A DNA stretch of 20,499 bases, from contig JBEKZX010000028.1 of NCBI GenBank assembly GCA_049509455.1, positions 1 to 20,499 of the forward strand. Reading direction: 5' to 3'. The notes under the pieces are model-generated. The model had not been told where the DNA came from. It saw nothing but the letters and a program-made list of their open reading frames with translations, and did not search any database. Each line of letters starts with the position of its first letter. The first letter of the stretch is position 1. Source of the DNA: Conexivisphaerales archaeon (GTDB taxonomy: Archaea > Thermoproteota > Nitrososphaeria > Conexivisphaerales > DTJL01). This document shows positions 1,689 to 20,145 of the stretch, piece by piece. Position numbers and translations under genes: made by a program.

Positions 1689-1760
1689 GCGGACTGACGA
1701 TGTCGTTTTCTCCTCCAGCAGCAATAGATGCCCAAGACTCTCATGACCGGCTTGGCCTTG
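1689..1760 (+). repeat. Dispersed repeat copy: 28-bp core (1700-1727) plus linker
   Basis: ATGTCGTTTTC-TCCTCC-AGCAGCAATAG, then ATGCCCAAGACTCTCATGACCGGCTTGGCCTTG, which aligns with 7409-7443. Confidence 0.75.
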
Positions 1761-1928
1761 ACCAACGGACGCTCGGAATGACGACACGTATTCCTATTCA
1801 AGTACGACTGCCAAATGCAATCCCCGAGAGTCCGCATCTACTAGTATCCGTTTCTAAGTAGGACTACCAGATGTACTTCGCTGCGTAGATATCATCTGAA
1901 GCCTCGATGAGTAACGGCACAAGGTCTA

Positions 1929-3353
1929 TCAGGGAACCCTTGACACCGTCCTCTTCCCCCTCATTATGGAGGGGATGATCGCCACAGCGTTCACGATGGC
2001 CATCACGATGAAGGCATGACCGAGGGCGAGCGAAAAGAGGCCCTTGTCCACGGTCGATATTGCCGCCGGGTTGGCGGACGCTATTATGGAGGATACGACG
2101 GGGTACGGGATGGTCGATGCCATGATAAGCATCGAGAGGTTCAGGGAGATGGTGAAGCCCACGTTGAAGAACACCGCCCTAAACGCCGATGCTATGCCCC
2201 TCCTATTCGAGGGGACGGAGCCCATCACCGAGCTCATGTTGGGTGACGAGAAGAGCCCAATCCCCACTCCCATGAGCACCTCATAGTACACGACGGTCAG
2301 GTACGGGGTCGCGGGTCCCATCGTCGCCATCAGGGCAAGGGCTACGGACATCACCGCAAGGCCTACGCTGGTGAACGCCCTGGCGCCGTACGTGTCTGAC
2401 AGCCTGCCGCTCAATGGACCGACCGCGAGGAAGGCAAATTCGTAAGGAAGGAGCTCTAGCCCTGCCTGAAGAGGGGTCTGGTTGTGCACGAGCTGGAGGA
2501 AAAGGCTCAGTAGCAGCAGCATGCTGCCCCACGTGATGGCGTTCAGCAGTTGTGCCGTCACAGCTCCCGTAAACTCCCTTATCTTGAGCAGGTCAAGGTC
2601 GAGGAGAGGGAACTTCCTCCCTTTCTCATATTGGACGAATGCTATCAAGGTGCCCGTGGCAACCAGGCTAAGGACGGCCACAAGGTCCGCTTCACCGAAC
2701 CCATATGCCGCGTATGTTAGCGCCAACAGGAAACTGGTGATGGATGTCGTAAACGTGGCGAAGCCCACCCAGTCGAACGGCGTACCCCTTTCCGGCTCGG
2801 CTACCTCCTTCAGGCGCTTGTATGCCCATATCGTCCCGAATATGCCGATGGGGACGTTGATGTAGAATAGCGCCCTCCAATCAACGAAGGCAAGGATGAC
2901 CCCGCTCAACGTAAGTCCAGCCATGGCCCCGAACCTGTAGGCGAGGTTATTGATGCCGAGGTGGAGTCCTAGCTCCTTGGCAGGCGTGGAGTCGGCAATC
3001 AAGGCCGCGCTGTTGGTGAAGAGCATCGAGGCGCCGAGGCCCTGGACCGCCCTGAACATTATCACTTCGTTAGGAGTCAACGAAAGACTGGTCAGCGCGG
3101 AGCCGATCGTGAAGATGATGAACCCGACGTTGTAGATCTTTACCCTCCCAGTCATGTCCGTTATCCTCCCTATGAGGAGGAGGAAGATCGTACTGGCGAG
3201 CGCGTAGGACTGCGTGAACCATATCGCCTGCTCAGCGTCGGCGTGCAGAGCGGCGGCGACCTGGGGGAGGCCGACGATCACGATCCTATCGTCTATCCCA
3301 GACATGAGGACGCCCACAGTCGTCACTGTGAGCACCGTCCACTTGTACTCCAT
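1929..3353 (-). CDS. MFS drug:H+ antiporter, DHA2 (EmrB/QacA, 14-TMS) family
   Basis: 474 aa. Motifs GLPQVAAALHA, WFTQSYAL, GRITDMTGRVKIY, FRAVQGLGA, WRALFYINVPIGIFG, FDWVG and G.LSDTYG.R. Confidence 0.92.
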   Translation of the reverse strand: MEYKWTVLTVTTVGVLMSGIDDRIVIVGLPQVAAALHADAEQAIWFTQSYALASTIFLLLIGRITDMTGRVKIYNVGFIIFTIGSALTSLSLTPNEVIMFRAVQGLGASMLFTNSAALIADSTPAKELGLHLGINNLAYRFGAMAGLTLSGVILAFVDWRALFYINVPIGIFGTIWAYKRLKEVAEPERGTPFDWVGFATFTTSITSFLLALTYAAYGFGEADLVAVLSLVATGTLIAFVQYEKGRKFPLLDLDLLKIREFTGAVTAQLLNAITWGSMLLLLSLFLQLVHNQTPLQAGLELLPYEFAFLAVGPLSGRLSDTYGARAFTSVGLAVMSVALALMATMGPATPYLTVVYYEVLMGVGIGLFSSPNMSSVMGSVPSNRRGIASAFRAVFFNVGFTISLNLSMLIMASTIPYPVVSSIIASANPAAISTVDKGLFSLALGHAFIVMAIVNAVAIIPSIMRGKRTVSRVP

Positions 3354-3402
3354 CCTCCTCAGGTAGCCGCATTCACAGATTACTTAAGCCTTATACTGGC
3401 GG

Positions 3403-3660
3403 TCAGAGCCCTGAGCTCGTGCTCAGCCTTCCCAGCCGCCTAAGGGCATCCGACCTGACCTCTTGTTCCAAGTTCCCTCTCTCCACCATCTCCTCGAGGA
3501 AGAATATGTCGTCAATTATAGCCCTCCTACCGAGCTCTGACGGAACGCAAGTGGGTCCGCAGAACAGCTCACATCCTATGCTCCAGTTACCGACTGGCAT
3601 TGCGAAGACTTGTGCCGGGGGCTAGCACCTGACATAAATCCCGACCCTTGCGACGTCCAT
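3403..3660 (-). pseudogene. Probable decayed gene with an in-frame TAG at codon 13; family uncertain
   Basis: TATA-like TTAATATA about 26-33 bp before ATG 3660. Reads MDVARVGIYVRC*PPAQVFAMPVGNW...SELGRRAIIDDIFFLEEMVERG... in one frame with ORF 3403-3600. Confidence 0.35.
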
Positions 3661-4024
3661 CGAGAAATCGGACAATATGCAACCAATATATTAAGCGAAT
3701 CCACATTCACGACTGGAACCAACCCAGTATTTACCTTGGAGAAGTGCACCGATCATCTGAGGCCACCATAGAAATAGTGATCCCATCGCTGGAAGTCCCG
3801 CTCGTAGGAGTCACCGTCCCCCGCGATAGCCGAGAAACAAGTCTTGCCCTCGGCCTATACGGATGTCAGGTTCTCTGGCATGAGCTTGGCTCACGCGCCA
3901 TCCCTCGTGCCACCAATCCGGTGAATCGCTGTAGAGGTACCGGCTTCCTAACTGCACGATGCCCTGAAGCAGGGTATCCAGTTATGAGACCAGACTTAAG
4001 AACTCCGAGGGTTCAAGAAACACT

Positions 4025-4177
4025 ATGCCAGTCTGCGACGTGTGCGGAAAGGTCGTAAGCAACCTTCGCAAGCACAAGGAGAGAGGTCGCTGCGGCAAGA
4101 AAGGGACCAAGAAGGGGAATCGGCCTCCCAAGTACCGGGTGGGGTCGCCCGAGTTCAGGTTGGGCCTGGACCTCTAG
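4025..4177 (+). CDS. 50-aa basic microprotein with a putative CxxC-x9-H-x5-C zinc-binding motif
   Basis: MPVCDVCGKVVSNLRKHKERGRCGKKGTKKGNRPPKYRVGSPEFRLGLDL. Below the ORF-track cutoff. Clear paralogue at 15243-15410. CTTAAG at 3995-4000 is 25-30 bp upstream. Confidence 0.8.
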   Translation: MPVCDVCGKVVSNLRKHKERGRCGKKGTKKGNRPPKYRVGSPEFRLGLDL

Positions 4178-4314
4178 CTCTCTGGATTCCGGTCGCTGTC
4201 TCTGTTAGAGAGGCTGTGGGACTCGGCCAATATCACGACTACTAGGCTATGGCTGACAGGTAGAACGTAGCCGGGGTGTCATGTTTATCTTACTCATTGT
4301 GCGAAGCACGGCTT

Positions 4315-4608
4315 ATGACGTTACATGCGAAAGTGGTAGCGACTTGGACAGGCGGTTCGGGGAGCGTAGCTGATAAGAAGCTGTCGAAGGAACTGAGCAA
4401 TATCATGGAAGCCATTCAGAAAGGAAGGGGCAAGATAACGAGCTTGACTTGGGGTTCCTTACCAGTTACCCCGTCCCATATGAAAGGTTTTGCCGCTATT
4501 CATTACCATAGCATAAATCTCTTTGGAACAGACGGGAATGAACATTTCATCGGAATCGTACCTCTGCCTTCCATGTACGTCCTCAAACGAGATTCTTCTA
4601 CCCATTAG
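4315..4608 (+). CDS. Putative small protein; its 3' half overlaps the GNAT gene antisense (possibly truncated)
   Basis: MTLHAKVVATWTGGSGSVADKKLSKELSNIMEAIQKGRGKITSLTWGSL reads as a natural beta-alpha-beta sequence. TTTATCT at 4284-4290 is 25-31 bp upstream. From 4459 the frame is antisense to GNAT. Confidence 0.35.
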   Translation: MTLHAKVVATWTGGSGSVADKKLSKELSNIMEAIQKGRGKITSLTWGSLPVTPSHMKGFAAIHYHSINLFGTDGNEHFIGIVPLPSMYVLKRDSSTH

Positions 4609-5010
4609 CCTGAAACCGAGCCGATGGTACAGCCCGCCGTCAGGATGCTCCTTCAAGTTAGCGCTGAGGCAGGCGATATGGCATCCCCTTCGCTTCAGAA
4701 TCGCCAACCCTCTCTTCGCCATATCTCCCCCCACTCCTTGGTGCCTTTCGGAAGCTGTAACGCACACTCCACCTATCCCACCGAGTAGTATTCTTCTCCT
4801 CTCGAACAGGACCTCTCTCTCGAATAACTCGGTCTGTCCTATGATTGTCGTATCACGGGACGCAAGTATTCTGCCAAAGCCCTCTGCTATGAAACATTCC
4901 TCAATCTCCGTTCTACTTACATGGCTGAAGCACTCTCTCTGAAGCTCCACTATCCGCAGGTTCTGAGCCGGAGTGAGCTCTTTGGTTGGAACGTATATTA
5001 TCCTAACCAT
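4459..5010 (-). CDS. GNAT family N-acetyltransferase (similar to the Eis N-terminal domain)
   Basis: 183 aa. Motif A region LGGIGGVCVTASERHQGVGGDM and motif B LYHRLGF. Lower GC than the ABC genes on spot counts. Confidence 0.88.
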   Translation of the reverse strand: MVRIIYVPTKELTPAQNLRIVELQRECFSHVSRTEIEECFIAEGFGRILASRDTTIIGQTELFEREVLFERRRILLGGIGGVCVTASERHQGVGGDMAKRGLAILKRRGCHIACLSANLKEHPDGGLYHRLGFRLMGRRISFEDVHGRQRYDSDEMFIPVCSKEIYAMVMNSGKTFHMGRGNW

Positions 5011-5060
5011 GGCACTGCCTCAAGTACTATGCGAATGCGGAAATAGAATCCTGACGATGG

Positions 5061-5131
5061 AGAGCCGAATGCATCGAAAGATGCACGTTCGGTTCGGAGA
5101 GAGGGATGGGCGGCAACGGGCATCCAGCAAT
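5061..5131 (+). mobile_element. Group II intron 3' remnant: domain V (5061-5094) and degenerate domain VI
   Basis: GAGCCGAATGCATC-GAAA-GATGCACGTTCGGTTC is a 34-nt hairpin with AGC catalytic triad (G pairs with U), GAAA tetraloop and AC bulge, the canonical D5. It is followed by GGAGAGAGGGATG..GCAA..CATCC and ends in AT. No RT ORF or domains I-III are recognisable nearby. Confidence 0.85.
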
Positions 5132-5193
5132 CGGTGAACCGCGCACCGTCTCTGCTCCGCAATGAGCGGCCCATTGGCAGGTCCAAGCCTACG
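5130..5193 (+). repeat. Dispersed repeat copy: module B (5168-5193) preceded by a possible degenerate module A
   Basis: GGCCCATTGGCAGGTCCAAGCCTACG matches 7335-7360 at 23/26 positions. Confidence 0.8.
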
Positions 5194-5295
5194 CCAGAAG
5201 TCCGAATGTGAATCTCGCCGCCGGCGGGCCGCGAACCAGAGCTTGGACTAAAGCTGGGCTGGAGAGCGCGCCTCATGCTTGCATTCGTATTCCCG

Positions 5296-5332
5296 GCATA
5301 GCCTCCGCTATGCGAGAGAAGATGGCTCATCT
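5296..5332. terminator. Two short hairpins just downstream of the alba stop; possible terminator or 3' UTR structure
   Basis: GCATAGC-CTCC-GCTATGC (5296-5313) and AGATG-GCT-CATCT (5320-5332). Confidence 0.3.
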
Positions 5333-5341
5333 CGACTCTGG

Positions 5342-5617
5342 CTACATCGCCAATGTTATTTCGATGCTGCTGACGTTCCTCATCGCGCCGGTTTCTGTGT
5401 CCTTCAGCTGCTCAGTTTCGATCTTGATGTCCTTGACCTTCACGTCGGTGGCAAAGCGCTTCCTCAATATCTCGGCCGTGTCGACGGCCGTGCTGATGGA
5501 CCTCCCTCTGGCCTTGATGAGCACGTCGTCGGGTCCGTTCTGGAGGAGGGTAAGACACGCCAGCACGTAGTTCATAACCGGTTTCTTTCCGATGAGTACA
5601 GTGTTAGGGGTTGACAT
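5342..5617 (-). CDS. albA: DNA/RNA-binding protein Alba
   Basis: [21 protein letters not shown]...[17 protein letters not shown]...VSSIEITL, 91 aa. Start set at ATG 5617, with a TTTAAG box about 32-37 bp upstream. Confidence 0.95.
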
Positions 5618-5684
5618 TGCTGTTACCTGCGGACACGACGGCATAGGTCTTAAACGTGTTCCGTGAGCCGGTTGCTTGGGCAAG

Positions 5685-5714
5685 TGATATTACTTTTCTT
5701 TTAAGCAGCAATAG
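5685..5714 (+). repeat. Dispersed repeat copy: 28-bp core (5687-5714)
   Basis: ATATTACTTTT-CTTTTA-AGCAGCAATAG has the same overall spacing; its right arm is identical to 7398-7408. Confidence 0.65.
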
Positions 5715-5861
5715 CAGACCGGGACACGGCGTCCAGTGTTCCGATCCCGGCCAGAGCACCACATATCATATTCAACCATACGGCCAACTGGCGCCATACA
5801 CGCTTTGAACGCTTTTATCACGCGGGCCTGTATTGTACGCTATAGGTAAGGATGCAGACTG

Positions 5862-7109
5862 ATGGCTTTCAAAGGGAATCTTTGGCGCCACCGAGACTTC
5901 CTGAAGTTCTGGACGGGTGACACAATCACCCAATTTACAGGCCAGGTTTCTGGGTTGGCACTCCCCACAGTCGCCATCCTTACCCTGCAAGTCACGGGAT
6001 TTCAGCTCGGAGTACTCAACGCCCTGGGCTTCATAGCTTTCCCGACGCTCGGCCTTTTCGTCGGCGTCTGGATGGACAGGATGAGACGGAGGCCTGTCAT
6101 GATAGTGGCGAACCTAATCCAGGTTGCGACGCTCTCGACGGTGCCTGCGGCTTTCGTATTCGGCGTACTCGGGTTGTATCAGCTGTATGCCGTCTCTCTG
6201 GTCATGGGGACGAGCACACTTTTCTTCGACGTTGCCTATCAGTCCTACCTCCCTAGTCTTGTCAACAAAGAGGACGTCGTAGAAGGCAACCAGAAGCTTC
6301 AGACGAGCGCGTCTGCTGCCCAGGTGGTCGGCCCGAGCGTAGCGAGTGGCATGATGCAGCTCGTTGGTGCGGCGCTGTCGGTCATCATGGACGTATTCGG
6401 AACCCTGGTCTCTGTGTTCACGTTAATCTCGATAAGAAAGCCCGAGCCCAAGCCTGAGCACAGCTCCGCCGACGGCCAGCGACACTTCTTCGCTGAGATG
6501 AGGGAAGGAATCAGTGTGGTCATTGGCAACAACCTGCTCTGGACACAGGCAGGATGCACCGGCACTGCGAACCTCGGCACGAACGTGTTCGCCGTAGCGG
6601 TCCTTCTGTACGCTTACCGCACGTTGGGAATTTCCAAGGGAGTCATAGGAATCGCCTTTTCCATCGGTGCAGTCGGCTTTCTTATAGGCGTCCTGATCTC
6701 TTCCGCTGTCACCAAGAGGCTTGGTTTGGGTAAGACCATCGCTCTATCTGTGGCGGGCAACTTCGGGCTATTAATCGTCCTGCTCGCGAACAGCAGTCTC
6801 GCCGTGCTCATAATAGGGGCCGCATACTTCGTAGGGAACCTCGGCATACCGATCTACAATATCAACCAGGTCAGCCTGAGGCAGATTATAACGCCAAACA
6901 GGCTTCAGGGGAGGATGAACGCTACGATGAGGACGATTGTCTGGGGCACGATCCCGCTTGGCTCTCTTCTGGGGGGAATTCTAAGCACAAGCTTGGGAAT
7001 TATACCTACGCTCGTCATTGGGGACCTAATTTCAGGCGGTTCAGTGCTTTGGATAGTTCTCGGGCCTATATTCAAGCTCAGCAAGCAACCCGGGCCGGTG
7101 GGCGATTGA
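5862..7109 (+). CDS. MFS transporter (DHA3 / macrolide-efflux-like, 12 TMS)
   Basis: 415 aa. LWRHRDFLKFWTG, GVWMDRMRRRPVMI, NQKLQTS.SAAQVVGP and SLRQIITPNRLQGRMNATMR. Confidence 0.9.
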   Translation: MAFKGNLWRHRDFLKFWTGDTITQFTGQVSGLALPTVAILTLQVTGFQLGVLNALGFIAFPTLGLFVGVWMDRMRRRPVMIVANLIQVATLSTVPAAFVFGVLGLYQLYAVSLVMGTSTLFFDVAYQSYLPSLVNKEDVVEGNQKLQTSASAAQVVGPSVASGMMQLVGAALSVIMDVFGTLVSVFTLISIRKPEPKPEHSSADGQRHFFAEMREGISVVIGNNLLWTQAGCTGTANLGTNVFAVAVLLYAYRTLGISKGVIGIAFSIGAVGFLIGVLISSAVTKRLGLGKTIALSVAGNFGLLIVLLANSSLAVLIIGAAYFVGNLGIPIYNINQVSLRQIITPNRLQGRMNATMRTIVWGTIPLGSLLGGILSTSLGIIPTLVIGDLISGGSVLWIVLGPIFKLSKQPGPVGD

Positions 7110-7267
7110 GCTTCATGGCAGTCAACCGATTTCTTACAGCGCCCTGAACCCGGAGAGTCAACTGAAGACTTCACAGAACCAGAATGCGGTTACTTCCTTT
7201 AAGCAGCTGCAGCGGAGTCGAACGATAATCCAAACGGGTCTAGAGTCCTGTCGGCATTTTCACAGGG

Positions 7268-7496
7268 AAGGCCCCATGAAAGCGCAAATCCTGTTTGCCT
7301 AGGCTACAGGTTGGGCAAACCAAAGACTGAATCAGGCCCATTCGCAGGTCCAAACCCACGTCCAAGATGGGCGGTTGAGGATATTGATTCCTTTTCCAGC
7401 AGCAATAGATACTTAGAACTATCATAACCGCCGGGCGGCCTTGCTTTCATTCAATTAACCGATTGCTTTCAATAACATAAAGACGGGCTCAGGCCC
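7268..7496 (+). repeat. Most complete repeat copy: module C - module B - 28-bp core (7381-7408) - linker - module A - restart of module B
   Basis: Every module has a homologue elsewhere in the window. AAAGAC and TCAGGCCC each recur 157 bp apart. A weak A-like remnant CAGTCAACCGATT lies at about 7119-7131. Confidence 0.9.
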
Positions 7497-7553
7497 TGAA
7501 TGGCTGGGGAAGGGTTTCTCTTCTACGGGATCTTGGCCGTGTTCAAGGCTCGG

Positions 7554-8130
7554 TCAAGCCACCATGATGCTGCTGGTTACGGTCACGTTCACCAGCATCT
7601 CGAGCGGTTCAACTATAGCGCCGCATCCGGAGTTCTCCCCTTCGAACCAGAGAACGAACTGGCCCTGGGGCAGATCCACCGAGAAACTCGTGACATTGAC
7701 CGACCCGCTCGAGTAGACCCAAGAAGAAGGATGGCCCTGCACGACATCTCCGGCCTGCTCGGCTGTAGACACGTAAAGTGTTACGAAACCAGTGGCATTG
7801 AACCCGCCCTCGAGCGTGGAGGCCTTGACCACGTCGAAGACCTGAGAGTAATGCGTGGCCAGGCAATCCCAACTGGATTGAACTGTGAAGGAGGTTCCGG
7901 CTGCCATTACGACCGCGGTGATGTGGGCTTCCGCAAGCAGGAAGTTTAGGTCGGCTATCATGTCGGACTGGTGTCGGATCGTGTTCTGTTGCGACCGTCA
8001 CGGATCCGAGCAGGATTACAGAGGCAACAAGGACGACAAGGATGGCGCGGGTGACGGTTGTTCCGTCCCTCCTACTCCTAGGTTCCACCGTCTCCGATCC
8101 GGTTCCAGCAAGGCGTCCCGAATAGGCCAT
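7554..8130 (-). pseudogene. Membrane-anchored/secreted beta-rich protein with one frameshift near 7995-8003
   Basis: TATA-like CTATAT about 25-30 bp before ATG 8130. The hydrophobic anchor RAILVVLVASVILLGSVTV is in one frame, and the body (SQQNTIRHQSDMIADLNFLL...VNVTVTSSIMVA, ORF 7554-7961) is in the next. Confidence 0.7.
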
Positions 8131-8270
8131 TACGTTGGACAACGTGGTGGGCAGATATAGTTCTACCTCCGTGAACGAACTTCCGATCCCAATCTGGACG
8201 CCGGGCCAGCGAAGCTTGGTCAAGATGCGGGGTCGGACTTCCACGGGCCCGCCAGTAAGGCGTCGCATCG

Positions 8271-8310
8271 ATGTTATTGATTTCTTTTCCGGCAGCAATA
8301 GATATCTAAG
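8271..8310 (+). repeat. Dispersed repeat copy: 28-bp core (8274-8301)
   Basis: TTATTGATTTC-TTTTCC-GGCAGCAATAG followed by ATATCTAAG. Confidence 0.85.
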
Positions 8311-8484
8311 GTTGGCTAAGCACAGGTTCCTTCCAGAATCGCGGGCTGCGCTCGCATCCGCAATTAGGATTCTGGGTCAACTCCCGTCGAAGGCATCGTT
8401 CGGGAGAGCAGACTCGAGCATGGATCCGCTGGGAATAAGCCCAAATGAGATATATTGCCGTCTAGCTGATAGCAGAGAGCGGTC

Positions 8485-9072
8485 ATGGTCATGGATAGTG
8501 AGCACATTAAGAAAAGAGCCTTTGAACCCTTGAAGCCGAGAAAGATATCCCCTCTAGACCACCTGCGAAGTCAGAGGGCTTGGAACTTGGAAAGACTAGG
8601 TAAGGCCTTCCTTCGTCCCAAGGGGAAGAGGTCCTTTGATTTCATAACCGTAGGAACAAGTAGCAAGAGACCCGAGGAACTCCTGGAACTTCTCAAATTG
8701 CCCATTTTCTCATGTGACTATTTGGTTGACATCCGAAACAATCCCAACAGCATGCACACACCATATTGGAACAAGAACAATATTTCTAAACTCTGCGAGG
8801 CCAAAGGAATCTGCTACATTCACAAGCCGAACCTTGGCGTGCCAAGCAGCATTCGCAAACTCCTATTCTCAGGGCAGATGAATTATGAACAGTTCTTTTC
8901 ATGGTATGACGAGAGCGTTCTCACGCAAGAGAATATGCAGCAAGTAGTCGACCTAGTAAGAACCAGCAATGTCTCTTTCATGTGCACAGAATTGGGTCCG
9001 ACTTATTGCCATCGACATCGAGTCGCGCTTAGACTTGAGAAAAGTTTTGGATACATTAGTTACGATTTGTAG
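8485..9072 (+). CDS. DUF488 family protein
   Basis: FITVGTS, LVDIRNNPNS, YIHKPNLG and MCTELGPTYCHR match the DUF488 pattern (T.G.S ... LVDVR..P.S ... LG ... C.E.....CHR). About 43% GC on a spot count. Confidence 0.8.
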   Translation: MVMDSEHIKKRAFEPLKPRKISPLDHLRSQRAWNLERLGKAFLRPKGKRSFDFITVGTSSKRPEELLELLKLPIFSCDYLVDIRNNPNSMHTPYWNKNNISKLCEAKGICYIHKPNLGVPSSIRKLLFSGQMNYEQFFSWYDESVLTQENMQQVVDLVRTSNVSFMCTELGPTYCHRHRVALRLEKSFGYISYDL

Positions 9073-9187
9073 TAGGCCAGCCTGACCCGTGATAACAAAC
9101 AGGAGTTCTAATTGCCGTCTGGAATCTAGTTGAGCCGACTTCAATGACTAACCCAGACAAATGCTAATCCCACCGCGCCCACGCTTT

Positions 9188-9268
9188 GCCTTGTTCCACT
9201 TCAGTCAACCCATTGTTTTCAATAACACATAGTAGAGTGAACGGCCCATTCACAAGTCCAAGCCTGCG
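9188..9268 (+). repeat. Dispersed repeat copy: module A followed by module B
   Basis: 9200-9227 matches 7450-7477 at 24/28. 9243-9268 matches 7335-7360 at 21/26. Confidence 0.85.
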
Positions 9269-9316
9269 TTTCCCAGAGTATGAATCAAAAGAGAGTGCGA
9301 CCAACTTGCACTTGGC

Positions 9317-9614
9317 TTGAGACAGGCCTACCTCGCGATTACGGCTGTCGTAGTGGCCTTGCTATTGTTCGCCTTCTTCGTTCCTTTCATTCAAGAGATT
9401 CCCTCGCCTGAGCCATGCAACACCCCAACAGGCTGCACTGAGATAACCTTCTCCGTCTCTTGACATATCATCTATTCAACATCGGTGAGGTTGTCTTCGG
9501 TTCCTCCCATCAGTTCTGGACATCCCCGCCAAACGTGTGTCCGGTAGAGAAGATCAATTCTTCAGTCAAGACGCACCGAGCCATATTCTCATCCTTTCAA
9601 AGTGCTGACGTCCG
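9317..9614 (+). pseudogene. Small membrane-anchored protein with a 1-nt deletion near 9458; true 3' end uncertain
   Basis: From TTG 9317 it reads (M)RQAYLAITAVVVALLLFAFFVPFIQEIPSPEPCNTPTGCTEITFSVS*. Adding one base (GTC TC_ TTG ACA TAT) joins it to LTYHLFNIGEVVFG... of ORF 9460. Confidence 0.55.
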
Positions 9615-9776
9615 TCATGCCTCCTTCCCCCCGCTCGGTTCGATTCCTTCGGCTACGATTAGCGCCCCAAGCGCCAGCAGCAGAAACCCTAAGATTAACC
9701 AGAGGTCGCCGATTGCCAGCACCCCCAACATCGCACTTATGATGGCGAGCCAGTCGAAGAATGCGTGAGGTTTCAT
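9615..9776 (-). CDS. 53-aa hydrophobic (about 2 TM) microprotein
   Basis: MKPHAFFDWLAIISAMLGVLAIGDLWLILGFLLLALGALIVAEGIEPSGGKEA. ATGA overlap with the upstream ORF. Confidence 0.6.
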   Translation of the reverse strand: MKPHAFFDWLAIISAMLGVLAIGDLWLILGFLLLALGALIVAEGIEPSGGKEA

Positions 9777-9862: not shown

Positions 9863-10032
9863 TCTCACGTCACTCCGAGAGGTTCTTGTTTATACGGTTT
9901 GAGACGCAGGCCGGAGAATGAGGGCTCACCACTGGGCTCCCTCCGGGACGGGCCCCCCCAAGTCGTCTGTTCTGTTTGTGCCCTACCCTCACCCGCTTCA
10001 GGAGATATAAGCGGAAGTCAGAGGAAAGCTTG

Positions 10033-10130
10033 ATGATATTGATTTCTCTTCCGGAATCAATAGATATCCAAAGGTACCCAGGAGAGCGCAATTCCGTTTG
10101 CCTAATCTACAGCTTGGGCGGACGAAGAGA
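10033..10130 (+). repeat. Dispersed repeat copy: 28-bp core (10036-10063) followed by module C
   Basis: ATATTGATTTC-TCTTCC-GGAATCAATAG contains a perfect 8-bp inverted repeat, TATTGATT/AATCAATA. 10071-10124 aligns with 7268-7320. Confidence 0.88.
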
Positions 10131-12825: not shown

Positions 12826-12847
12826 AGCCCTTGGCCAGCCTCCTTGT

Positions 12848-12862
12848 CATATAGGTTTTTCG
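12848..12862 (-). promoter_or_regulatory. BRE/TATA promoter of the ABC operon
   Basis: Minus strand reads CGAAAAA-CC-TATATG, about 23-28 bp upstream of GTG 12825. Confidence 0.55.
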
Positions 12863-13184
12863 AACGCGTTGGGTGGCAGTCATTTTCCCTGCTCCCATTT
12901 CAGGCCGTTCCATATGACTTCCATCCTGCATTTCTTGGCCAGTGAACAGGTGAGGAAGACGCGGTGGTCGTTCTACTCGAAGTTCCAAGCCCCTCCGAGG
13001 CTTCAGTCGGTCCAAGAAGCTGTGAGGACCGAGTCTCAATACCCACGTTCGAGTCGGTATCGGAATCAGACCTGATTCCAGTCCTGGCGCCGGACTCTGC
13101 GATCGCATTTCAGGCACGGTTCGTAGAACCGGGCGATGCCGCTGTCCTTAGGCTGGAACGACCCAGGAGGCGACTTTGACGAGC

Positions 13185-13607
13185 CTATCTCGATCTCTTC
13201 TCTTGTAGGTATCCAAGGTAGGCCGCTCTCGTGAGTGCATCGGCCTTCTGGTTCATTTCTCTTGGAACCCACATGAACTCTAGCAACTTGAAGCTCTCGG
13301 CGAGCTTCTTAGCTTCGAGAGACCTTTCTCTATAAGCTCCCTTCTTGACCTTCCACCTGCCGCTCATCTGGTTCACTAGAAGCTGCGAGTCTGACATCAC
13401 GACCACCTGTTCGGTCGAGTACGAAAGTATCGCCTTCAGTCCCCGGATCAGCGCTTCGTATTCGGCTTCGTTGTTAGATACCGGGTCGCCGACGAACCCG
13501 CTGTCCTGAGCCAGCAGCTCTCCATCCCTATAGACGATGAAGGCATATGTGCCGATGCCGGGATTGCGGGGCTCGGCCAGCCCGTCGGTGAACATCTCAA
13601 TAGTCAT
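13185..13607 (-). CDS. rnhA: Ribonuclease HI (archaeal-type)
   Basis: FTDGLAEPRNPG, SNNEAEYEALIRGL, SDSQLLVNQMSGRWKVK and WVPREMNQKADAL supply the DEDD catalytic residues. Confidence 0.93.
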   Translation of the reverse strand: MTIEMFTDGLAEPRNPGIGTYAFIVYRDGELLAQDSGFVGDPVSNNEAEYEALIRGLKAILSYSTEQVVVMSDSQLLVNQMSGRWKVKKGAYRERSLEAKKLAESFKLLEFMWVPREMNQKADALTRAAYLGYLQEKRSR

Positions 13608-13635
13608 GCCTTGCAGCGAGCATGCTCAGCCCTCA

Positions 13636-14088
13636 CTATAATGCCTTTGTTCTGGAGGTTGACTTAGAGGGTCGCCATATCAGTACGACAGAACCGAAAC
13701 CAGTAACTGCGGAGAGCACTTCGCCTACGGGCACAACATGGACAGAGGATGGGAGGAGAGTGCAGGACGCGGCCTCAAGCAAGGACGCAAGTATGAAAGC
13801 GTCGCCGCCGGCCTTTTTGCCTTGAAGAGCAGGAGACAACCCATAATCAGCAGGGCGAATTCAATCAGGAATGTTATTCCGGTGACAGCGACGTAAGCCG
13901 TAGGCGGCGCACGTTGACCTGCGAGACCGAACGCAACGGAGATGAAGAAGAAGTTGACGCCCCCTCTGCGGCGTCGCCCAAAAGCCAACAAGCGTCCGAA
14001 GGGCAACAATCCCATATGTGGCATAGGCCAACAAGATAGTCAGGCTCCAAGGCACTAACGACGAAGCCATCCCCAACGATGCGAACAG
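13636..14088 (-). pseudogene. Multi-pass membrane protein broken by at least two frameshifts
   Basis: Three hydrophobic segments lie in three successive frames (ORFs 13861-14076, 13725-14024, 13636-13839). The shifts fall in a G5 run (near 13950-13954) and an A5 run (near 13814-13818). The 5' end is also disrupted. Confidence 0.55.
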
Positions 14089-14195
14089 CTTAGGTCAGGG
14101 CTGCATGGGGGGAAGCCATTGAACCAGCAGAGTCGGGTTCTACGGAAGGCGCAGATGCTGGAGCGGCTGTAGCTACTGCCTTATCGTGTCCGCCG

Positions 14196-15179
14196 TCACA
14201 CGTAGTCTTCACGCCGCATGACTCCGATAACCTTCTCACCGGTGAGGAAGCTTCTGACGTTCTCACCTGCGCGGCGGGCGGCGCCCACCAGTACGCTGGG
14301 GACGCTGCCGGAGTTATGGGGAGAGCCCAGCACGTTGGGCAACTCAAGGAACGGATGGTCCATCCTGAATTCGCCTTGGTGGCGCGGTTCGGTCCACCAT
14401 GTATCTATCCCGGCCATGAAGTCCGGGTGGCTCTTCAGGTGATCGTACAGCGCCTCCTCATCGATTATGGAGCCCCGGGCCACGTTGACGAGTATGGCGT
14501 TTGGCTTCATCATCTCGAGTTCTCTTCTTCCAATCAGGCACCTGGTGGCCTTCGTGAGCGGCAGGGAAAGCACTACGACATCGCTGGCCTTCAGGACCTT
14601 CTCGAGATCCCTGAGGGTGCCGATGAAATCGGTGGGCTCATCGCTCCTACCGCTGGTGTTGATGGCGTAGATGCTCATGCCGAACGGGCGCATCAGCCTC
14701 GCCGTCGCACGACCTATGCCTCCGAAGCCGACGATCCCGGCGGTCATCCCGGAAAGCAAGCGGTTAGGGGTAGTCTGGTCGAACTCCCCCTTCATCATTT
14801 TCATATCCTGAGCGACAAGTCGCTTCGCCAAGGCCAAGGTCATCGCCATGACGTGCTCGGCCATGGGCGCGGCGAAGGCGCCGACGTTGCCTGCGATGAT
14901 GGTGTTGGGTCCCAGGGCGGCAAAGGGCATGCTATCGGCCCCGGCGGACACGAGCTGGATGAACTTGACGTTCCCGAGCATGGGAAACTCCTGTGGAAGG
15001 ACTTCCTGAGGGAAGTTCCCTGAAAACAGCGCCGTCGCGCTACGCAGGAACTCCCCACGCTGCTCAGGCAAAGCATCTTGCAAGTAGATTACAGAGGCAA
15101 CGTCTCCCAGAACATAATCGAACAGGGCCCTCGCCTCGGTCGGGGCTCTAAGGGTCACGACGACCTTCCTCTTCTCCAA
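14196..15179 (-). CDS. D-isomer-specific 2-hydroxyacid dehydrogenase
   Basis: SAGAD, MAEHV, Rossmann GIVGFGGIGR, LVNVARGSIIDEEAL, AGIDTWW.EP and SPHNSG. Confidence 0.93.
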   Translation of the reverse strand: MEKRKVVVTLRAPTEARALFDYVLGDVASVIYLQDALPEQRGEFLRSATALFSGNFPQEVLPQEFPMLGNVKFIQLVSAGADSMPFAALGPNTIIAGNVGAFAAPMAEHVMAMTLALAKRLVAQDMKMMKGEFDQTTPNRLLSGMTAGIVGFGGIGRATARLMRPFGMSIYAINTSGRSDEPTDFIGTLRDLEKVLKASDVVVLSLPLTKATRCLIGRRELEMMKPNAILVNVARGSIIDEEALYDHLKSHPDFMAGIDTWWTEPRHQGEFRMDHPFLELPNVLGSPHNSGSVPSVLVGAARRAGENVRSFLTGEKVIGVMRREDYV

Positions 15180-15242
15180 GCTCCTCCTCCTGGATTCGGA
15201 GCCTGGCGTATATTAGGGAAGCCGAATCATTGGCGCTGGAGC

Positions 15243-15410
15243 TCAGAAGCCGGTGAAGCCCGAGTCCATGGACAACCTGCGCTCGGGGGAGTCCAGCCGG
15301 TATTTTGCAGGAAGACCGCCCTTCTTTCTTCCCTTCTTACCGCACCGCCCGCGGGCCTTATGCCTCCTGAGGTCCTTCACGACCTTTCCGCAGACGTCGC
15401 AGACTGGCAT
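15243..15410 (-). CDS. 55-aa basic microprotein, paralogue of 4025-4177
   Basis: MPVCDVCGKVVKDLRRHKARGRCGKKGRKKGGLPAKYRLDSPERRLSMDSGFTGF. Start placed at ATG 15410 by homology and by the GTTAAG box 26-31 bp upstream. Confidence 0.8.
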   Translation of the reverse strand: MPVCDVCGKVVKDLRRHKARGRCGKKGRKKGGLPAKYRLDSPERRLSMDSGFTGF

Positions 15411-15491
15411 CAGAGAAATGTAGTCCATGGTGTGGCTTAACCTTTGCGTGGAGGCGGAACAGGCTACCTATCCCTGCCGTCAGCTACCACT

Positions 15492-15532
15492 TTGAAGATC
15501 TCGTAATCTGGTCCAGCAGCCGACCCAAGACT
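15492..15532 (+). repeat. Possible highly degenerate copy of the repeat core
   Basis: 15492-15520 matches 7375-7403 at 20/29 without gaps, followed by CCCAAGACT as in the 1730s copy. Confidence 0.35.
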
Positions 15533-15597
15533 TGAGGTACTCTATAGGAAGTCTGAGAGAAGTATCATTCAAATAGGACTTAACAGTATTTTCGACT

Positions 15598-16494
15598 GTG
15601 CAGAAGTGGGTGCCGGCAGTGGTCGTGGTGCTGCTCCTCGTTGGAGGTACTGTAGCTTACGTGTCTTGGCAGACAATTCTCCTCAGGCAACAGAATGAGA
15701 CCGAGCGACAGGAGACCGAACAACTTCAGGAGCAACTCCAGTCGCTTCAACAACAGCTTCTCAACCAGAGTAATCAGCTGTCGGGGGAGATATCGAATCT
15801 CACAAGCGAGGTGAACATGTATCAGTCTCTGATTTCAAATCTCACAGCCGAAGTGGGCCAGGATCAGGGTTTAACATCGAACCTCACAGCCGAAGTGGGC
15901 CAGGATCAGTCTCTGATATCGAATCTCACAAGCGAGGTGAACATGTATCAGTCTCTCCTGTCTTTGAATACCACTTCCTCTAATTCCACGAACGGCCTCT
16001 TCCTGGGGATGAGCCTGAACACGACCACCCTGAGCCCCGGGCAGGGAGTCGATATCACCGTCGCCGAGCTCAACTTGCTGGACCAATTCAACAACATTTC
16101 CGTAGCTGACGCCTGGGCCCTGAAGGGCCTCGCGACGGGAGGGTGCCCCTCGCTCTACTACCCCTTCGGGATAGCCGTCCTCCAGGGCATCTACACGAGC
16201 GCGAACTTATCTCAGGCCGTGCCGCTTCGAATCTTCCCTGTGGTCGCCTGCCCGATGATCGTCATGTACATCACCGGATACTTGTTCCAGCCGATGAGCG
16301 ACAACGCGACAGTCCTCCCCGGCACGGGAGAGGTCACGATGGCGACGGCGGTCTCAGCGAGCGGGACCTACAGCACTACTGGGAATAAGTTGAACCAGCT
16401 TACGCCCTTCACGCCCGGGACCTACACCGTGGTAGCCGGCGACGAATGGGGAAGCGTGGCCTTCGCTTATTTCGTCGTGGTCGCCTCTTCGTAG
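15598..16494 (+). CDS. Membrane-anchored extracellular protein with a coiled-coil stalk and a C-terminal beta domain
   Basis: N-terminal TM segment, Q/L-rich heptads, several N-x-S/T sequons, and C-terminal PGTYTVVAGDEWG. Confidence 0.85.
   Translation: MQKWVPAVVVVLLLVGGTVAYVSWQTILLRQQNETERQETEQLQEQLQSLQQQLLNQSNQLSGEISNLTSEVNMYQSLISNLTAEVGQDQGLTSNLTAEVGQDQSLISNLTSEVNMYQSLLSLNTTSSNSTNGLFLGMSLNTTTLSPGQGVDITVAELNLLDQFNNISVADAWALKGLATGGCPSLYYPFGIAVLQGIYTSANLSQAVPLRIFPVVACPMIVMYITGYLFQPMSDNATVLPGTGEVTMATAVSASGTYSTTGNKLNQLTPFTPGTYTVVAGDEWGSVAFAYFVVVASS
15790..15957 (+). repeat. Four in-frame 42-bp (14-aa) tandem repeats in A-B-B-A order
   Basis: Units 1 and 4 are 41/42 identical (ISNLTSEVNMYQSL). 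Units 2 and 3 encode xSNLTAEVGQDQxL. Confidence 0.95.
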
Positions 16495-16629
16495 ATGACG
16501 GTCCGCGGAGAGAAATACGAACCCGAGGCGGAGCCCAGCGAGGGCGTGAGGAAGGGAATCACAGCTAAGGAGGAAGCTGAAGAGGTCGCGAACAGGAGCT
16601 TGATCGACGGAAACCTGAAGTTCCGCCTT

Positions 16630-16640
16630 CCCCCCCCCCC
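16630..16640. repeat. C11 homopolymer
   Basis: Eleven consecutive C residues between the 15598-16494 gene and catalase. Confidence 0.9.
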
Positions 16641-16786
16641 AGAAGCGGGCGCCAAAGGATACCGGAGCGGGAGGGCGCATCGCATCGTTTCCTCATCGGG
16701 CCGTACACCGTGGTCGTGGCTAGTCTGTAAAGGCGGACTTTGATGCTGTGGTATGAAGTAGTCTAGTGCTCAGCGAGCCAGCCGTC

Positions 16787-18250
16787 CTAGAGTTTGAGGC
16801 CTTTGGCTACGGCTTTCCCTAACGTCGGGTCAGCTTTAGTCAAGTTTGCAACCACCCGTTGCTGAATCTGTTTGTCTATGGGTGTAAGATCTGCAATGAG
16901 GTTGCCTACCAGATGCTCTTGGTCTACCTTGTTCAAGGAACGATACTTTTCTCTAGCTTGCTGGAAGTCGTTGGTTCTGCTAATCTTCTTCTTTGTGACA
17001 TCCCCATCAACGCGAAATGCGGATGATGCTCCTGACGGATCCTCCACGGGTGAGCCTCCGGCAAGGGTTGCTGGTTCATAATTCACAGGACCGCTGTATT
17101 CTCCCATTTGCATTGACCCGTCGCGCTGGCTGTTGTTGACCTCCGCCACGGGACGGTTTACTGGAATCTGCAAGTAGTTTGGTCCTAACCTATGGCGCTG
17201 GGTATCCGCGTACGAAAATGTTCTGCCCTGGAGCAACTTGTCGGCGGAGAATTCTATACCTGGAACGATGCTTGCTGGACAGAAGGCTGCTTGCTCAACT
17301 TCAGCGAAGAAGTTCTTGGGATTGCGATTCAATACCATCTTCCCGACTCGCATCAGCGAGAATTTGTCTTCAGGCCAGGTCTTCGTCGGGTCAAGTGGGT
17401 CAAAATCTTGTTTCAACTCGTCCCCAATCTTCATCAGCTGGACAAAGAGTTCATACTGTACCTCTTCACCCTTGGCTATTGCGTTCCAGAGGTCGCGGCT
17501 GAGATAGTCTGGGTCGACGCCAGCCAGCCGGGTTGCTTCATGACGGTCAAGGTTGTGAACTCCCAATTTTGGTTTCCAGTGGTACTTCACATACTGACGC
17601 TTGCCAGCCGAGTTCACCCAGACATAGGTGTTAACCCCGAAGCCCTCGGTCATCCTATAGCTTCTTGGTGTCCCGCGGTCTGAGAAGAGCCATATGATCA
17701 TGTGCGTTGATTCAGGGGTCAAAGATATGAAATCCCAGAAGCTGTTGTGGGACGACGAGGCCGCAGGCATGTTGTTGTCAGGTGCGCCCTTGAACGCATG
17801 AACCATGTCTGGGAATTTGATAGCGTCTCGGATGAAGAACACGGGAAGGTTGTTTCCAACTAGGTCGTAGTTGCCTTCCTCGGTGTAGAACTTTACGGCG
17901 AATCCACGTGGATCCCGCACCGTGTCAGCAGATCCTCTTCCACCGGTTACGGTTGAAAACCTTACGAACACGGGAGTCTTCTTGCTTGGGTCTTGGAGGA
18001 ACTTCGCCTTTGTGTAGGGCGCCATACTCTTGTAAACTTGGAAGTAGCCGTGTGCTGCTGCCCCCTTTGCGTGGACAACTCTTTCGGGGATGCGCTCTCT
18101 ATCAAAGTGTGCCATCTTCTCGACGAACTGGACATCTTGAAGCAAGACCGGGCCTCTTTCGCCAACAGTCAACGAATTCTGATTGTCGGCGATCGGCACG
18201 CCCTGATTTGTGGTCAAATGTTTCTTCTTTTCCGTTGTAGGCATCTCCAT
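16787..18250 (-). CDS. katA: Monofunctional heme catalase (small subunit)
   Basis: FDRERIPERVVHAKG, RFSTVTG, RDPRGFAVKFYTEEGNYDLVGNN and LLQGRTFSYADTQRHRLG; 487 aa. Confidence 0.96.
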   Translation of the reverse strand: MEMPTTEKKKHLTTNQGVPIADNQNSLTVGERGPVLLQDVQFVEKMAHFDRERIPERVVHAKGAAAHGYFQVYKSMAPYTKAKFLQDPSKKTPVFVRFSTVTGGRGSADTVRDPRGFAVKFYTEEGNYDLVGNNLPVFFIRDAIKFPDMVHAFKGAPDNNMPAASSSHNSFWDFISLTPESTHMIIWLFSDRGTPRSYRMTEGFGVNTYVWVNSAGKRQYVKYHWKPKLGVHNLDRHEATRLAGVDPDYLSRDLWNAIAKGEEVQYELFVQLMKIGDELKQDFDPLDPTKTWPEDKFSLMRVGKMVLNRNPKNFFAEVEQAAFCPASIVPGIEFSADKLLQGRTFSYADTQRHRLGPNYLQIPVNRPVAEVNNSQRDGSMQMGEYSGPVNYEPATLAGGSPVEDPSGASSAFRVDGDVTKKKISRTNDFQQAREKYRSLNKVDQEHLVGNLIADLTPIDKQIQQRVVANLTKADPTLGKAVAKGLKL

Positions 18251-18318
18251 TCAACAACAGTTGTTCGAATCCCCTATAAATTTCTATCGTCATCGCGAAA
18301 CTAGCTAGCAAAGGCAGG

Positions 18319-18574
18319 CTAAGCATGCGTCATGCGATTGCCGTGATGGTATCCGAATATCGAAGCAGAGACAAGCGCGCAAGCGATCGCAGCTCCGACA
18401 TAGAGGGGTTCGCCCGACTTTCCCGTCAGCGCACCCCATACAGACGACTCCACACTCAGCAAGGCCGCCGTGTCTTCAAAGCGGATCCTTTTCGGAGGGC
18501 CTCTCAGCGTAGCCAAGAGGTTTGCGGCACCCAGGATGATGACTTGAAATCTCCGCTAACTCCGCAGGAGTCAT
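18319..18574 (-). pseudogene. Small (about 85-aa) membrane protein with a +1 frameshift near 18545
   Basis: ATG 18574 lies 8 bp after the Lrp stop. MTPAELAEIS joins (ATT TCA A GTC ATC ATC, one extra A) to VIILGAANLLATLRGPPKRIRFEDTAALL...LYVGAAIACALVSASIFGYHHGNRMTHA. Confidence 0.6.
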
Positions 18575-18581
18575 TGGATCA

Positions 18582-19040
18582 TTATAGCTTGAACCGGGTT
18601 TCGATCTTCACAAGGCCTGTCGCGGCCCATACCGTGGCGTCCTCCACGCCGGAAATCATCTTAATCCTCCGTTTGAGTTCGTTCAAATGCTTCATGTCTT
18701 TGGCGTGGACGACGGCTATAGCGTCGTATTCACCCGTCGTCTGAAAGACGTGATGTGATTCTTCGAAGGAGGCCAACTCGCCTACCGCGTCGCTCAAGAG
18801 CATCGGGTCTGTCTTGACCAGCACCACGGCGGTCACGTTCATTCCAATTCTTCTCGGATCAAGCAGGGCCGTCATCCTGGTGATCACCTTCTCATCGGAC
18901 AGGCGTTTTAGCCTGTATCTTACGGTCGACTCGGCGACCCCCATCAGCTCTGCAATCTCGGCGAAAGAGATACGCGCATCATCCTGAAGCAGGTTCAGAA
19001 TGCTCTTGTCGATTTCATCAAGATCTTTCGGCAAACCCAT
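18582..19040 (-). CDS. Lrp/AsnC family transcriptional regulator
   Basis: LDEIDKSILNLLQDDARISFAEIAELMGVAESTVRYRLKRL helix-turn-helix, plus a C-terminal RAM domain (TTGEYDAI). Confidence 0.95.
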   Translation of the reverse strand: MGLPKDLDEIDKSILNLLQDDARISFAEIAELMGVAESTVRYRLKRLSDEKVITRMTALLDPRRIGMNVTAVVLVKTDPMLLSDAVGELASFEESHHVFQTTGEYDAIAVVHAKDMKHLNELKRRIKMISGVEDATVWAATGLVKIETRFKL

Positions 19041-19283
19041 GGGAAGTCAGTTGAATCGTGCTTATAATCGTGAGCCCGAAAGGGTCCGTTAAGTTGTCGG
19101 TCGATTATGGGAGGCTTTGAGCTCCAGTCAGCGGCGTGCTGGAGGAGAATCGGGTCAAGCCTCGGACACGTGACGACACGCGGGCCACCGAAGCCGATAT
19201 TTGCGGAAGACGCAATAAAAGCGGATAGATTCAGCGAAACCAGCAGATTTATAAGGTCGTCCACAGCAGCGTCTCGACTTGAA

Positions 19284-19997
19284 TTGGCCAACTACATTCC
19301 ACTGTTGACCACCGCCGTGGCCTTTGTCTTCTCCCTCCTCCTCGCCCGCCAGTACTTTCAGAGGCGCAGGGTTCACCAGCTCCTTTGGACGGTCGCCATG
19401 GCCTTTTACGCAATCTCGGCGTTTATGGAGTTCCTCATGAATCCGGACGTGATGGGAGCGAACCTCTCCCTGTTCAGGGTCTACTACGTCCTGGCGGCGC
19501 CCCTAGTGGGCCTGCTGGGCGCGGGGGTGGTGTATCTCCTTGCGAAGAGGGGCGTGGCCAGGCTCTTCCTCGGTTTCGTGGTGGTGTTCTCCCTGGCCTT
19601 GGTCGCCACGGGCCTGACTGCATCCCTCAATGCATCGACCTTCGTCAGCGGCTTCAGCGGGGGGCTGGCGCAGGGCATCAGCGCAGCCTCCAGCCTCTAT
19701 CCCATGACCGTGAGGGTCTTCGCCATCGTCCTGAACTCCGTCGGAGGCGTGGCCTTGATCGTTGGCGCCCTCTACAGCTTCCTGAGAGACATGAGCAGGA
19801 CGTACAACCTCTTCATCGCCGTCGGGGGCGTGCTGCCGATGGCGGGGGGAGCCCTTCTGGGGTTCTTCGAAAGCAGTGACCTGTTCTTCACGTTCGAGCT
19901 GGGAGGGACGGTCTTCCTCTTCCTGGGCTTCCTGTTGAGCGCGGGATACATCACGAGGAGGGAGGCCGCTAAGGCGGCACCGACCTCCAACCCTTGA
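19284..19997 (+). CDS. Multi-pass (about 7 TM) membrane protein of unknown function
   Basis: The hydrophobic sequence starts at (M)ANYIPLLTTAVAFVFS. TTTATAA at 19248-19254 supports TTG 19284 over the track start at 19107. Confidence 0.8.
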   Translation: MANYIPLLTTAVAFVFSLLLARQYFQRRRVHQLLWTVAMAFYAISAFMEFLMNPDVMGANLSLFRVYYVLAAPLVGLLGAGVVYLLAKRGVARLFLGFVVVFSLALVATGLTASLNASTFVSGFSGGLAQGISAASSLYPMTVRVFAIVLNSVGGVALIVGALYSFLRDMSRTYNLFIAVGGVLPMAGGALLGFFESSDLFFTFELGGTVFLFLGFLLSAGYITRREAAKAAPTSNP

Positions 19998-20039
19998 CCT
20001 ATAGGTGTGCTGCTAACAGCGGCCTCCGACATCTCCTCC

Positions 20040-20145
20040 CATTCGATTGACAGATTGTCTTCACTAACCTAAAGATGAATGAACGGCCCATTCGCGGGTC
20101 CAACCCCACGTCTAAGACTGGCGGCTGAAGATTTGGTCTTTCCAA
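20040..20145 (+). repeat. Dispersed repeat copy: module A - module B - degenerate core
   Basis: 20042-20069 matches 7450-7477 at 21/28. 20085-20132 matches 7335-7382 at 41/48 without gaps. Confidence 0.9.

Follow-up and report, generated by a model that had tools for sequence, protein, structure and literature searches.

Modular repeats between the genes of the window

The stretch of DNA analysed here, hereafter the window, is the entire 20.5-kb contig C62 (20,499 nucleotides) of a 2.05-Mb, 140-contig archaeal metagenome-assembled genome (MAG), G000, and its intergenic spaces hold a family of short modular repeats, built from blocks designated A, B, C and core, that is the subject of this work. 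Profiles for the four modules were seeded from the composite at 7268-7485, iterated over G000 and run with nhmmer. The genome was compared with four others of the same Conexivisphaerales (Nitrososphaeria) genus, G001, G002, G003 and G004, the last being a sister species; these MAGs are fragmented. The sister-species DNA compared amounts to about 720 kb, and coverage extends to a portion of G004 and to short stretches of G001 and G002. Gene positions in the window follow the calls on an identical public contig, 48.6 kb long and derived from a peat metagenome, and those beyond it derive from crude open-reading-frame (ORF) calls. The repeat copies of the window, all of them intergenic, are listed below together with an intron relic that lies among them.

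1696-1749 (core match 1696-1734), plus strand: solitary core with its conserved tail (..CCAAGACTCTCATGACC), found by repeat search and by profile
5060-5155, plus strand: relic of group II intron domains V-VI (RF00029, 55.9 bits), its 3′ end 12 nt before the B at 5168
5156-5195 (B match 5168-5195), plus strand: B joint site, variant TTGGCAGGTCCAAGCC, with a stretch resembling the tail of A before it
5685-5714, plus strand: core with diverged right half, at the right end of the Alba cassette block
7118-7216, plus strand: degenerate remnants, A-like at 7118-7140 and core-like at 7194-7216 (originally listed as a weak locus at 7119)
7276-7320, plus strand: module C, a conserved hairpin (GTTTGYCT..GGGCAAAC) whose G.T pairs are workable on the plus strand only
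7330-7365 (match 7335-7365), plus strand: B joint site (TCAGGCCCATT, CGCAGGTCCAAACC and CACG)
7374-7430 (match 7377-7411), plus strand: core at a fixed distance right of B (B-core composite)
7436-7492 (A match 7439-7485), plus strand: module A, then the left half of B only (TCAGGCCC), then unique sequence
8270-8306, plus strand: solitary core, with a possible degenerate B at about 8312-8335 judged by eye only
9189-9270 (A 9189-9229, B 9243-9270), plus strand: A-B composite, B variant CACAAGTCCAAGCC
10032-10123 (core 10032-10070, C 10081-10123), plus strand: core-C composite, no B after the hairpin
12978-12991, plus strand: possible decayed B (CGAAGTTCCAAGCC, two mismatches), intergenic; a weak candidate
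15490-15520, plus strand: core-like remnant, inside which homology with G004:C7 ends at ..CCAGCAGC
20036-20155 (A 20036-20077, B 20085-20116), plus strand: A-B composite and degenerate core

Repeat search and profiles thus bear out the modular blocks that the original prediction, made from the window alone, had placed at about ten intergenic loci. Every locus but one was recovered, the weak ones as degenerate copies, and the statements that all clear copies lie on the plus strand outside genes, and that the window contains no transposase, hold as well. The exception is the locus at 5130, which belongs to domain VI of the intron relic, the local repeat being the B at 5168. The profile of C also scores on the minus strand, because C is a hairpin. 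The core had been described as a 28-bp quasi-palindrome; its palindromic character is only weak and it gives no significant fold.

The B site and its distribution in the genus

Alignment of all B copies with their flanks yields a conserved site (TCAGCCCAT, a T-run of variable length, CGCAGGTCCAAGCCYACG) that is asymmetric, sequence-defined and about 30-40 bp long, with an invariant part of 16-20 nt. Unique sequence follows directly after B, and divergence begins immediately beyond it. On the left, at a fixed distance, A, C, core or a further module that had escaped the original prediction, D (GCATTTAAC..CATGAAACCCCACGC), stand as alternatives, with nothing at all in over half of the copies, and on the right a minority of copies carry core, again at a fixed distance. 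The resulting sets comprise A-B-core, A-B, B-core, C-B and B alone, along with longer chains such as A-linker-core-(C)-B and core-C-B. The modules showed no terminal inverted repeats.

Module C alone behaves as a strand-specific hairpin, with 94% of its stem cells paired on the plus strand against 78% on the minus strand, owing to C/T changes opposite G. This pairing, together with the AT-rich composition of A and core and the conserved ATG that follows each, speaks for multicopy non-coding RNAs, one of the options originally proposed, or for transcript-end elements, acting as RNA from the plus strand. The remaining evidence runs the other way: DNA folds of A-B, C-B, B-core and A-B-core on both strands are no better than those of shuffled sequences (z from -1.23 to +0.46), and no module matches an Rfam family, the intron relic being the sole Rfam match. 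Site direction is moreover unrelated to gene direction (60 genes with the site and 59 against it, on rough ORF calls), a split on which promoters or terminators of neighbouring genes were likewise rejected, and invariance at every base of B fits a DNA site. We judge an RNA role for the family as a whole very unlikely.

A coding role fares no better. No obvious codon-position bias had been noted originally; core does hint at third-position variation in one plus-strand frame, in which it reads ..DDIDFFSSSNRYPKLS up to a stop 16 codons in (about 12 copies), but no long ORF carries it. The ORFs upstream of core are short and unrelated, the frame from B to core varies, and the ORFs that open at the ATGs after A and core mostly span fewer than 30 codons in varying frames. 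We reject core and A as genes, although they may have originated as relics of coding sequence.

Across G000, the profiles count 69 copies of B, 45 of core, 27 of A and about 13 of C. With up to two mismatches allowed, the genome contains 73 instances of TTCGCAGGTCCAAGCC, the invariant 16-mer of B, where 1.6 are expected, and the reversed-pattern control gives no match. Neighbouring B sites are co-oriented in 40 of 42 pairs (p = 4e-10) at a median spacing of 1.4 kb, and the commonest content of the interval from one B to the next is a single gene. The copies concentrate on some 30 small contigs whose G+C content is slightly lower, and 17 of the 73 sites lie less than 500 nt from a contig end.

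With up to one mismatch, the 16-mer is present 60, 24, 44 and 58 times in four genomes of the genus and once in the fifth, G003, where one decayed B-like site and one chance match are uninformative as candidates for an ancestral attB. Beyond the genus, 36 other genomes of the order and class yield no match or, in G015, a single match at chance level; the whole composite and all modules are likewise limited to the genus, the modules among 36 genomes of the order. Among 185,579 species genomes, the exact 20-mer is found in only three MAGs, all of this genus (labelled Conexivisphaerales or uncultured Nitrososphaerota). These results confirm a real, same-direction, intergenic repeat family restricted to one peat-soil Conexivisphaerales genus.

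Orientation extends over long distances. On the 286-kb contig G004:C2, all modules lie on the plus strand from 14.7 to 103.9 kb and on the minus strand from 104.6 to 178.9 kb, with none beyond. This convergent layout, like that of a fork trap, and the asymmetric, invariant 16-20 bp of B are what one would expect of polar chromosome sites, be they Ter-like fork barriers or orienting sequences akin to the FtsK orienting polar sequences, that follow replication and provoke local rearrangement. G004 shows, however, at least five convergent and two divergent switches over four contigs, which is at odds both with this explanation and with the simple switch at origin and terminus that had been suggested. 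The switch point of G004:C2 coincides with neither an Orc1/Cdc6 gene nor any other landmark, the 60-70 sites are spaced at gene-sized intervals and always between genes, and polar sites would leave the side modules and the duplicates running from B to B unexplained. We thus regard such a function as highly improbable.

The window also carries two inverted copies (4025-4177, plus strand, and 15243-15428, minus strand), 74% identical over 147 nt, of a basic zinc-ribbon gene of 50-61 amino acids (MPVCDVCGK...) that is multicopy in all five genomes of the genus, and one copy, flanked by inverted B-core units, lies precisely where orientation switches on G004:C2 (104.0 kb). The likeness between reverse-complemented B and the 3′ end of a small zinc-ribbon gene is estimated to be at chance level and was discarded.

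Reshuffled cassettes and synteny breaks

The comparisons show sites that share one direction, lie between genes, are confined to the genus and join cassettes that have been reshuffled. Genes of the window are 82-90% identical to their counterparts in G004, yet these counterparts are scattered over contigs C2, C3, C4 and C7 of that genome, as the following window cassettes illustrate.

Catalase: G004 C4
AsnC regulator and its neighbour: G004 C3, 25.8 kb
135-amino-acid gene: G004 C3, 24.1 kb
GNAT acetyltransferase: G004 C7
Alba: G004 C3, 174 kb
RNase H: G004 C3, 57 kb

The boundaries of homology coincide with the modules. The Alba block common to the window and G004 starts at the B 16-mer and ends in core, and the B at 5156-5195 forms the left end of the Alba cassette common to G004:C3 and G000:C90. 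The cassette common to G000:C96 begins at the B of the 9189-9270 composite, the AsnC block common to G004:C3 stops at the first base of A (20036), and homology with G004 across the GNAT block stops exactly at 5060, where the intron relic starts. Elsewhere in G000, the segment C112:2221-4391 corresponds to G004:C2:26692-28864 over its whole B-to-B length, identity being 88-90% within the block and about 55% beyond it, and further B-to-B blocks lie at C69:302-824 and C93:6348-6950. Duplicates within G000 also start at B (the Alba cassette on C62 and C90; C58 and C98), and B contains the ends of such duplicates 7.7 times more often than it contains random positions. The crossover can be resolved no finer than the 20-25-nt core of B.

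Synteny follows the same pattern. Where both flanks of a module cluster could be located in the sister-species DNA compared, they are adjacent in only 1 of 9 cases, against 40 of 50 control intergenic points, and no empty site was found among the 95 clusters tested, the lone cluster with adjacent flanks having its site present. The 165 kb of G004:C2 that bear modules match G000 only in scattered pieces of 0.3-6 kb, most of them below 3 kb, whereas the module-free 106 kb are collinear with it in blocks of up to 20.7 kb (81.6% weighted identity). Blocks at least 87% identical make up 40% of array blocks but 7% of core blocks, a contrast that detection bias may inflate. The recombination sites considered in the original prediction fit these data, in which homology blocks start and stop in B and modules mark the synteny breaks.

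The same data lend no support to the non-autonomous mobile elements that had been proposed alongside. Miniature inverted-repeat transposable elements do not agree with the lack of empty sites among the 95 clusters, with modules devoid of terminal inverted repeats, or with the failure to find any parent, that is, an autonomous element with the same ends. The sole Y1_Tnp gene of G000, on C118, is paired with TnpB in an IS200/IS605 element whose ends match no module, and it was discarded as a parent; these unrelated ends and the several orientation switches of G004 also count against palindrome-associated single-strand elements of the IS200/IS605 type.

Three further observations concern these elements and regions in their own right. 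The C118 element (G000:C118:4003-5504, minus strand; TnpA of 132 and TnpB of 368 amino acids) is the single intact IS200/IS605 element of its genome, has an ortholog in G004:C5 and bears no relation to the repeats. The first 15 kb of G004:C2 (G004:C2:1-15000, L001), which adjoin the left border of the module-bearing region and carry DegV, PQQ-propeller and alpha/beta-hydrolase genes, have a G+C content of 42-46% against about 58% elsewhere and represent foreign DNA or an assembly chimera. Within the window, a 298-amino-acid gene (15598-16494) with a faint DUF8429 match contains four to five tandem 42-nt coding repeats (15792-15993).

A candidate cassette-exchange system

The modules are themselves targets of insertion. 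Three IS110-family copies in G004 (L104:1505-2784, L105:1733-3009 and L021:1416-2699, on G004:C7 and C3), 92-95% identical and about 1.28 kb long, each lie inside a core, at CA, in the same spot and orientation. The left flank ends in ..TTCCAG-CA and the right flank starts with CA-GCAATAG.., and the joined flanks give the uninterrupted core consensus. The element encodes a 364-amino-acid DEDD transposase and bears subterminal inverted repeats of 17 nt, with 124 nt of non-coding sequence upstream; its constant position in core at CA suggests a natural bridge/seeker-RNA recombinase with a known target. Guide-like matches between its non-coding end and the core target amount to two 6-mers only, at chance level. 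A distinct IS110-type gene interrupts an A module of G000, where it immediately follows ..CAATAACATA. All these copies interrupt modules and do not carry them. Target specificity has been described across the IS110 family (PMC11187229, PMC11208160), and its member IS621 targets repetitive extragenic palindromic (REP) sequences in E. coli (Durrant 2024, PMC11208160; Siddiquee 2024, PMC11187229). The copies in core and A resemble both IS621 in REP and the IS1111-attC elements of integrons, just as the intron relic beside B resembles the group IIC-attC introns of integrons (PMC3001079). A second copy of that relic, below threshold (37.7 bits), lies at G000:C80:5698-5763; no reverse transcriptase (PF00078) was found in G000, eight further genomes of the family gave no match to RF00029, and no full intron was found beside B in G004.

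On balance, we consider it probable that the repeats mark the junctions between accessory-gene cassettes in an integron-like array peculiar to this genus, with B as the working site. Conservative recombination between B sites in the same direction would cut out, insert and reorder packets of one to few genes, which would carry their own promoters and could face either way. A, C, D and core would act as cassette-borne side arms of B, comparable to the arm regions of phage attP, a role that would account for the variety of combinations seen (A-B-core, A-B, B-core, C-B and B alone). Through their abundance and conservation, the modules may have turned into landing sites for site-specific parasites, namely IS110-family elements in core and A and, once, a group II intron beside B. 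That recombination at B is conservative and site-specific appears the better account of the sequence comparisons, because the identity available at over half of the sites is limited to about 25-30 bp, a stretch that also contains the breaks. More tentatively, and with somewhat less confidence than we would need to call it probable, we put forward that the genus runs a true cassette exchange that arose independently of integrons, with a short duplex B, optional arms, an unrecognised recombinase and IS110 and group II parasites of its own.

The attC sites of integrons are imperfect palindromes (R''-L''...L'-R', GTTRRRY core) that fold as single-stranded DNA. B differs in being defined by its sequence, with no R''/R' pair seen by eye and no significant single-strand fold. 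G000 contains no IntI gene, its cassette genes lie either way (60:59) and not mostly in the one direction read from Pc, and the sites form many separate clusters, some of them opposed, with optional side modules flanking B. The likeness to sedentary chromosomal integrons and to clusters of attC sites lacking integrases (CALINs), archaeal ones included (Ghaly et al. 2022, PMC9668308), resides in same-direction sites that separate accessory cassettes of one to few genes and are alike within the lineage, in cassettes that are reshuffled and shared between species, and in the presence, within or next to the repeats, of site-specific IS110/IS1111-type elements and a group II intron. The dif modules of Acinetobacter plasmids, bounded by pdif (XerC/XerD) sites (PMC6449649), provide a second parallel, in that short sites bound discrete, shuffled accessory modules with no dedicated recombinase gene adjacent; there, however, the sites are 28-bp dyads that alternate and reside on plasmids, whereas B is asymmetric, directly oriented and chromosomal, and no Xer is tied to it.

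Several observations weigh against the cassette-array interpretation. No recombinase linked to the arrays was found: the single PF00589 tyrosine recombinase of G000 (C100) is part of a tRNA-integrating element missing from another sample, serine recombinase, Y1 and IS110 genes fail to track the arrays across the genus, and the edges and switch point of the G004:C2 array hold only cargo genes and no recombinase. About half of the core copies are solitary, which side arms of B leave unexplained. The dyad symmetry of B is weak, as on inspection of the consensus only 6-nt arms, CGCAGG / CCYACG on either side of TCCAAG, can be matched, and these at 4-5 of 6 positions, unlike the two inverted 11-bp arms and 6-8-bp spacer of a Xer/dif-type site of about 28 bp. 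The 10.1-20 kb half of the window is also reshuffled relative to G004, yet lacks an intact B. Gene order is identical in every metagenome contig found, which gives no sign of recent movement in the peat population, so that any turnover would be slow. Lastly, the comparison spans only the 720 kb or so of sister-species DNA. Contig breaks near the start of C69 fall in a duplicated segment common to C121 (95% identical) and are for that reason read as repeat-induced and not polymorphic.

Individual enzyme candidates were discarded on their distribution. The C100 integrase is part of a tRNA-integrating element whose insertion site is empty in another sample, the serine recombinase was found in G004 only, and TnpA was not found in G002 or G001, both of which carry arrays. 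Separately, we note an integrative element with a 437-amino-acid tyrosine integrase (L091:10795-20795 compared with L093; G000:C100 region) that occupies a tRNA 3′ end downstream of an NADH dehydrogenase operon in some peat samples and leaves a clean empty site in another.

The missing recombinase is also what a different class of explanation would predict, in which the repeats are mosaics of the kind formed by REP sequences and bacterial interspersed mosaic elements (BIMEs), that is, host or selfish intergenic elements that spread alone and whose dispersed copies promote shuffling as a by-product of homologous recombination. The comparison with BOX and REP/BIME repeats originally drawn is apt as regards the mosaic: in both cases a few short modules, one of them a palindromic hairpin (here C), occur in many combinations, all copies are intergenic and IS110-family elements target them, as IS621 does in E. 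coli (PMC11208160, PMC11187229). The enterobacterial elements part company with the present ones in other respects. Here the key unit, B, is non-palindromic, the copies form clusters with about 95% co-orientation where REPs are dispersed and often form inverted pairs, and the repeats coincide with synteny breaks and cassette ends. No RAYT is present, the sole Y1 gene residing in the IS200/IS605 element with unrelated ends, and empty sites number 0 of 95. More than half of the B sites, lacking any side module, would moreover offer homologous recombination only about 25-30 bp of identity. We judge this origin unlikely, if the most substantial of the alternatives.

Serial integration leads to a further proposal, according to which B is the att core of integrative elements, possibly derived from a tRNA T-arm, and the arrays are stacks of decayed elements. 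In the tycheposon islands of Prochlorococcus (bioRxiv 10.1101/2020.12.28.424599), serial integration leaves cargo modules separated by same-direction att repeats, and the present arrays similarly hold cargo between same-direction repeats. The sets A-B-core, A-B and B-core do resemble attP, attR and attL, within the population the arrays are stable, and the genus holds several long tyrosine integrases, at least one of which targets a tRNA 3′ end. In our own alignment B resembles the T-arm of tRNA-Phe, its best tRNA match (TCGCAGGTTCAAATCCTGC in C86), at 17 of 19 positions with one gap. This score, however, exceeds those of the shuffled consensus by only about 1.9 standard deviations, and no array adjoins tRNA-Phe or any other tRNA gene, whereas the islands contain clear tRNA fragments beside a tRNA gene and recombinases of their own, which the arrays lack. 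Cassettes consist of one to few ordinary genes with no integrase remnants, and the sites occur in many separate clusters, not at one attB. Integration scars are, in our estimation, a decidedly improbable source of the arrays.

Returning to the integron-like cassette array, we met with no account of arrays of this kind in Nitrososphaeria in our literature search. Should B be a working site, approximately 8-20% of the genome (165-454 kb of 2.05 Mb, counted as contigs holding sites) would have been assembled by a cassette system that is invisible to integron-finding software. The system would provide a testable handle on the gain and reshuffling of accessory genes, among them transporters, catalase, acetyltransferases and regulators, in non-ammonia-oxidising soil Nitrososphaeria, with a 16-20-nt invariant site, defined carrier genomes and a sister genome, G003, that is nearly devoid of the site. 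It would also supply natural targets of archaeal IS110-family (bridge/seeker-RNA) recombinases, with TTCCAG-CA-GCAATAG as their insertion point.

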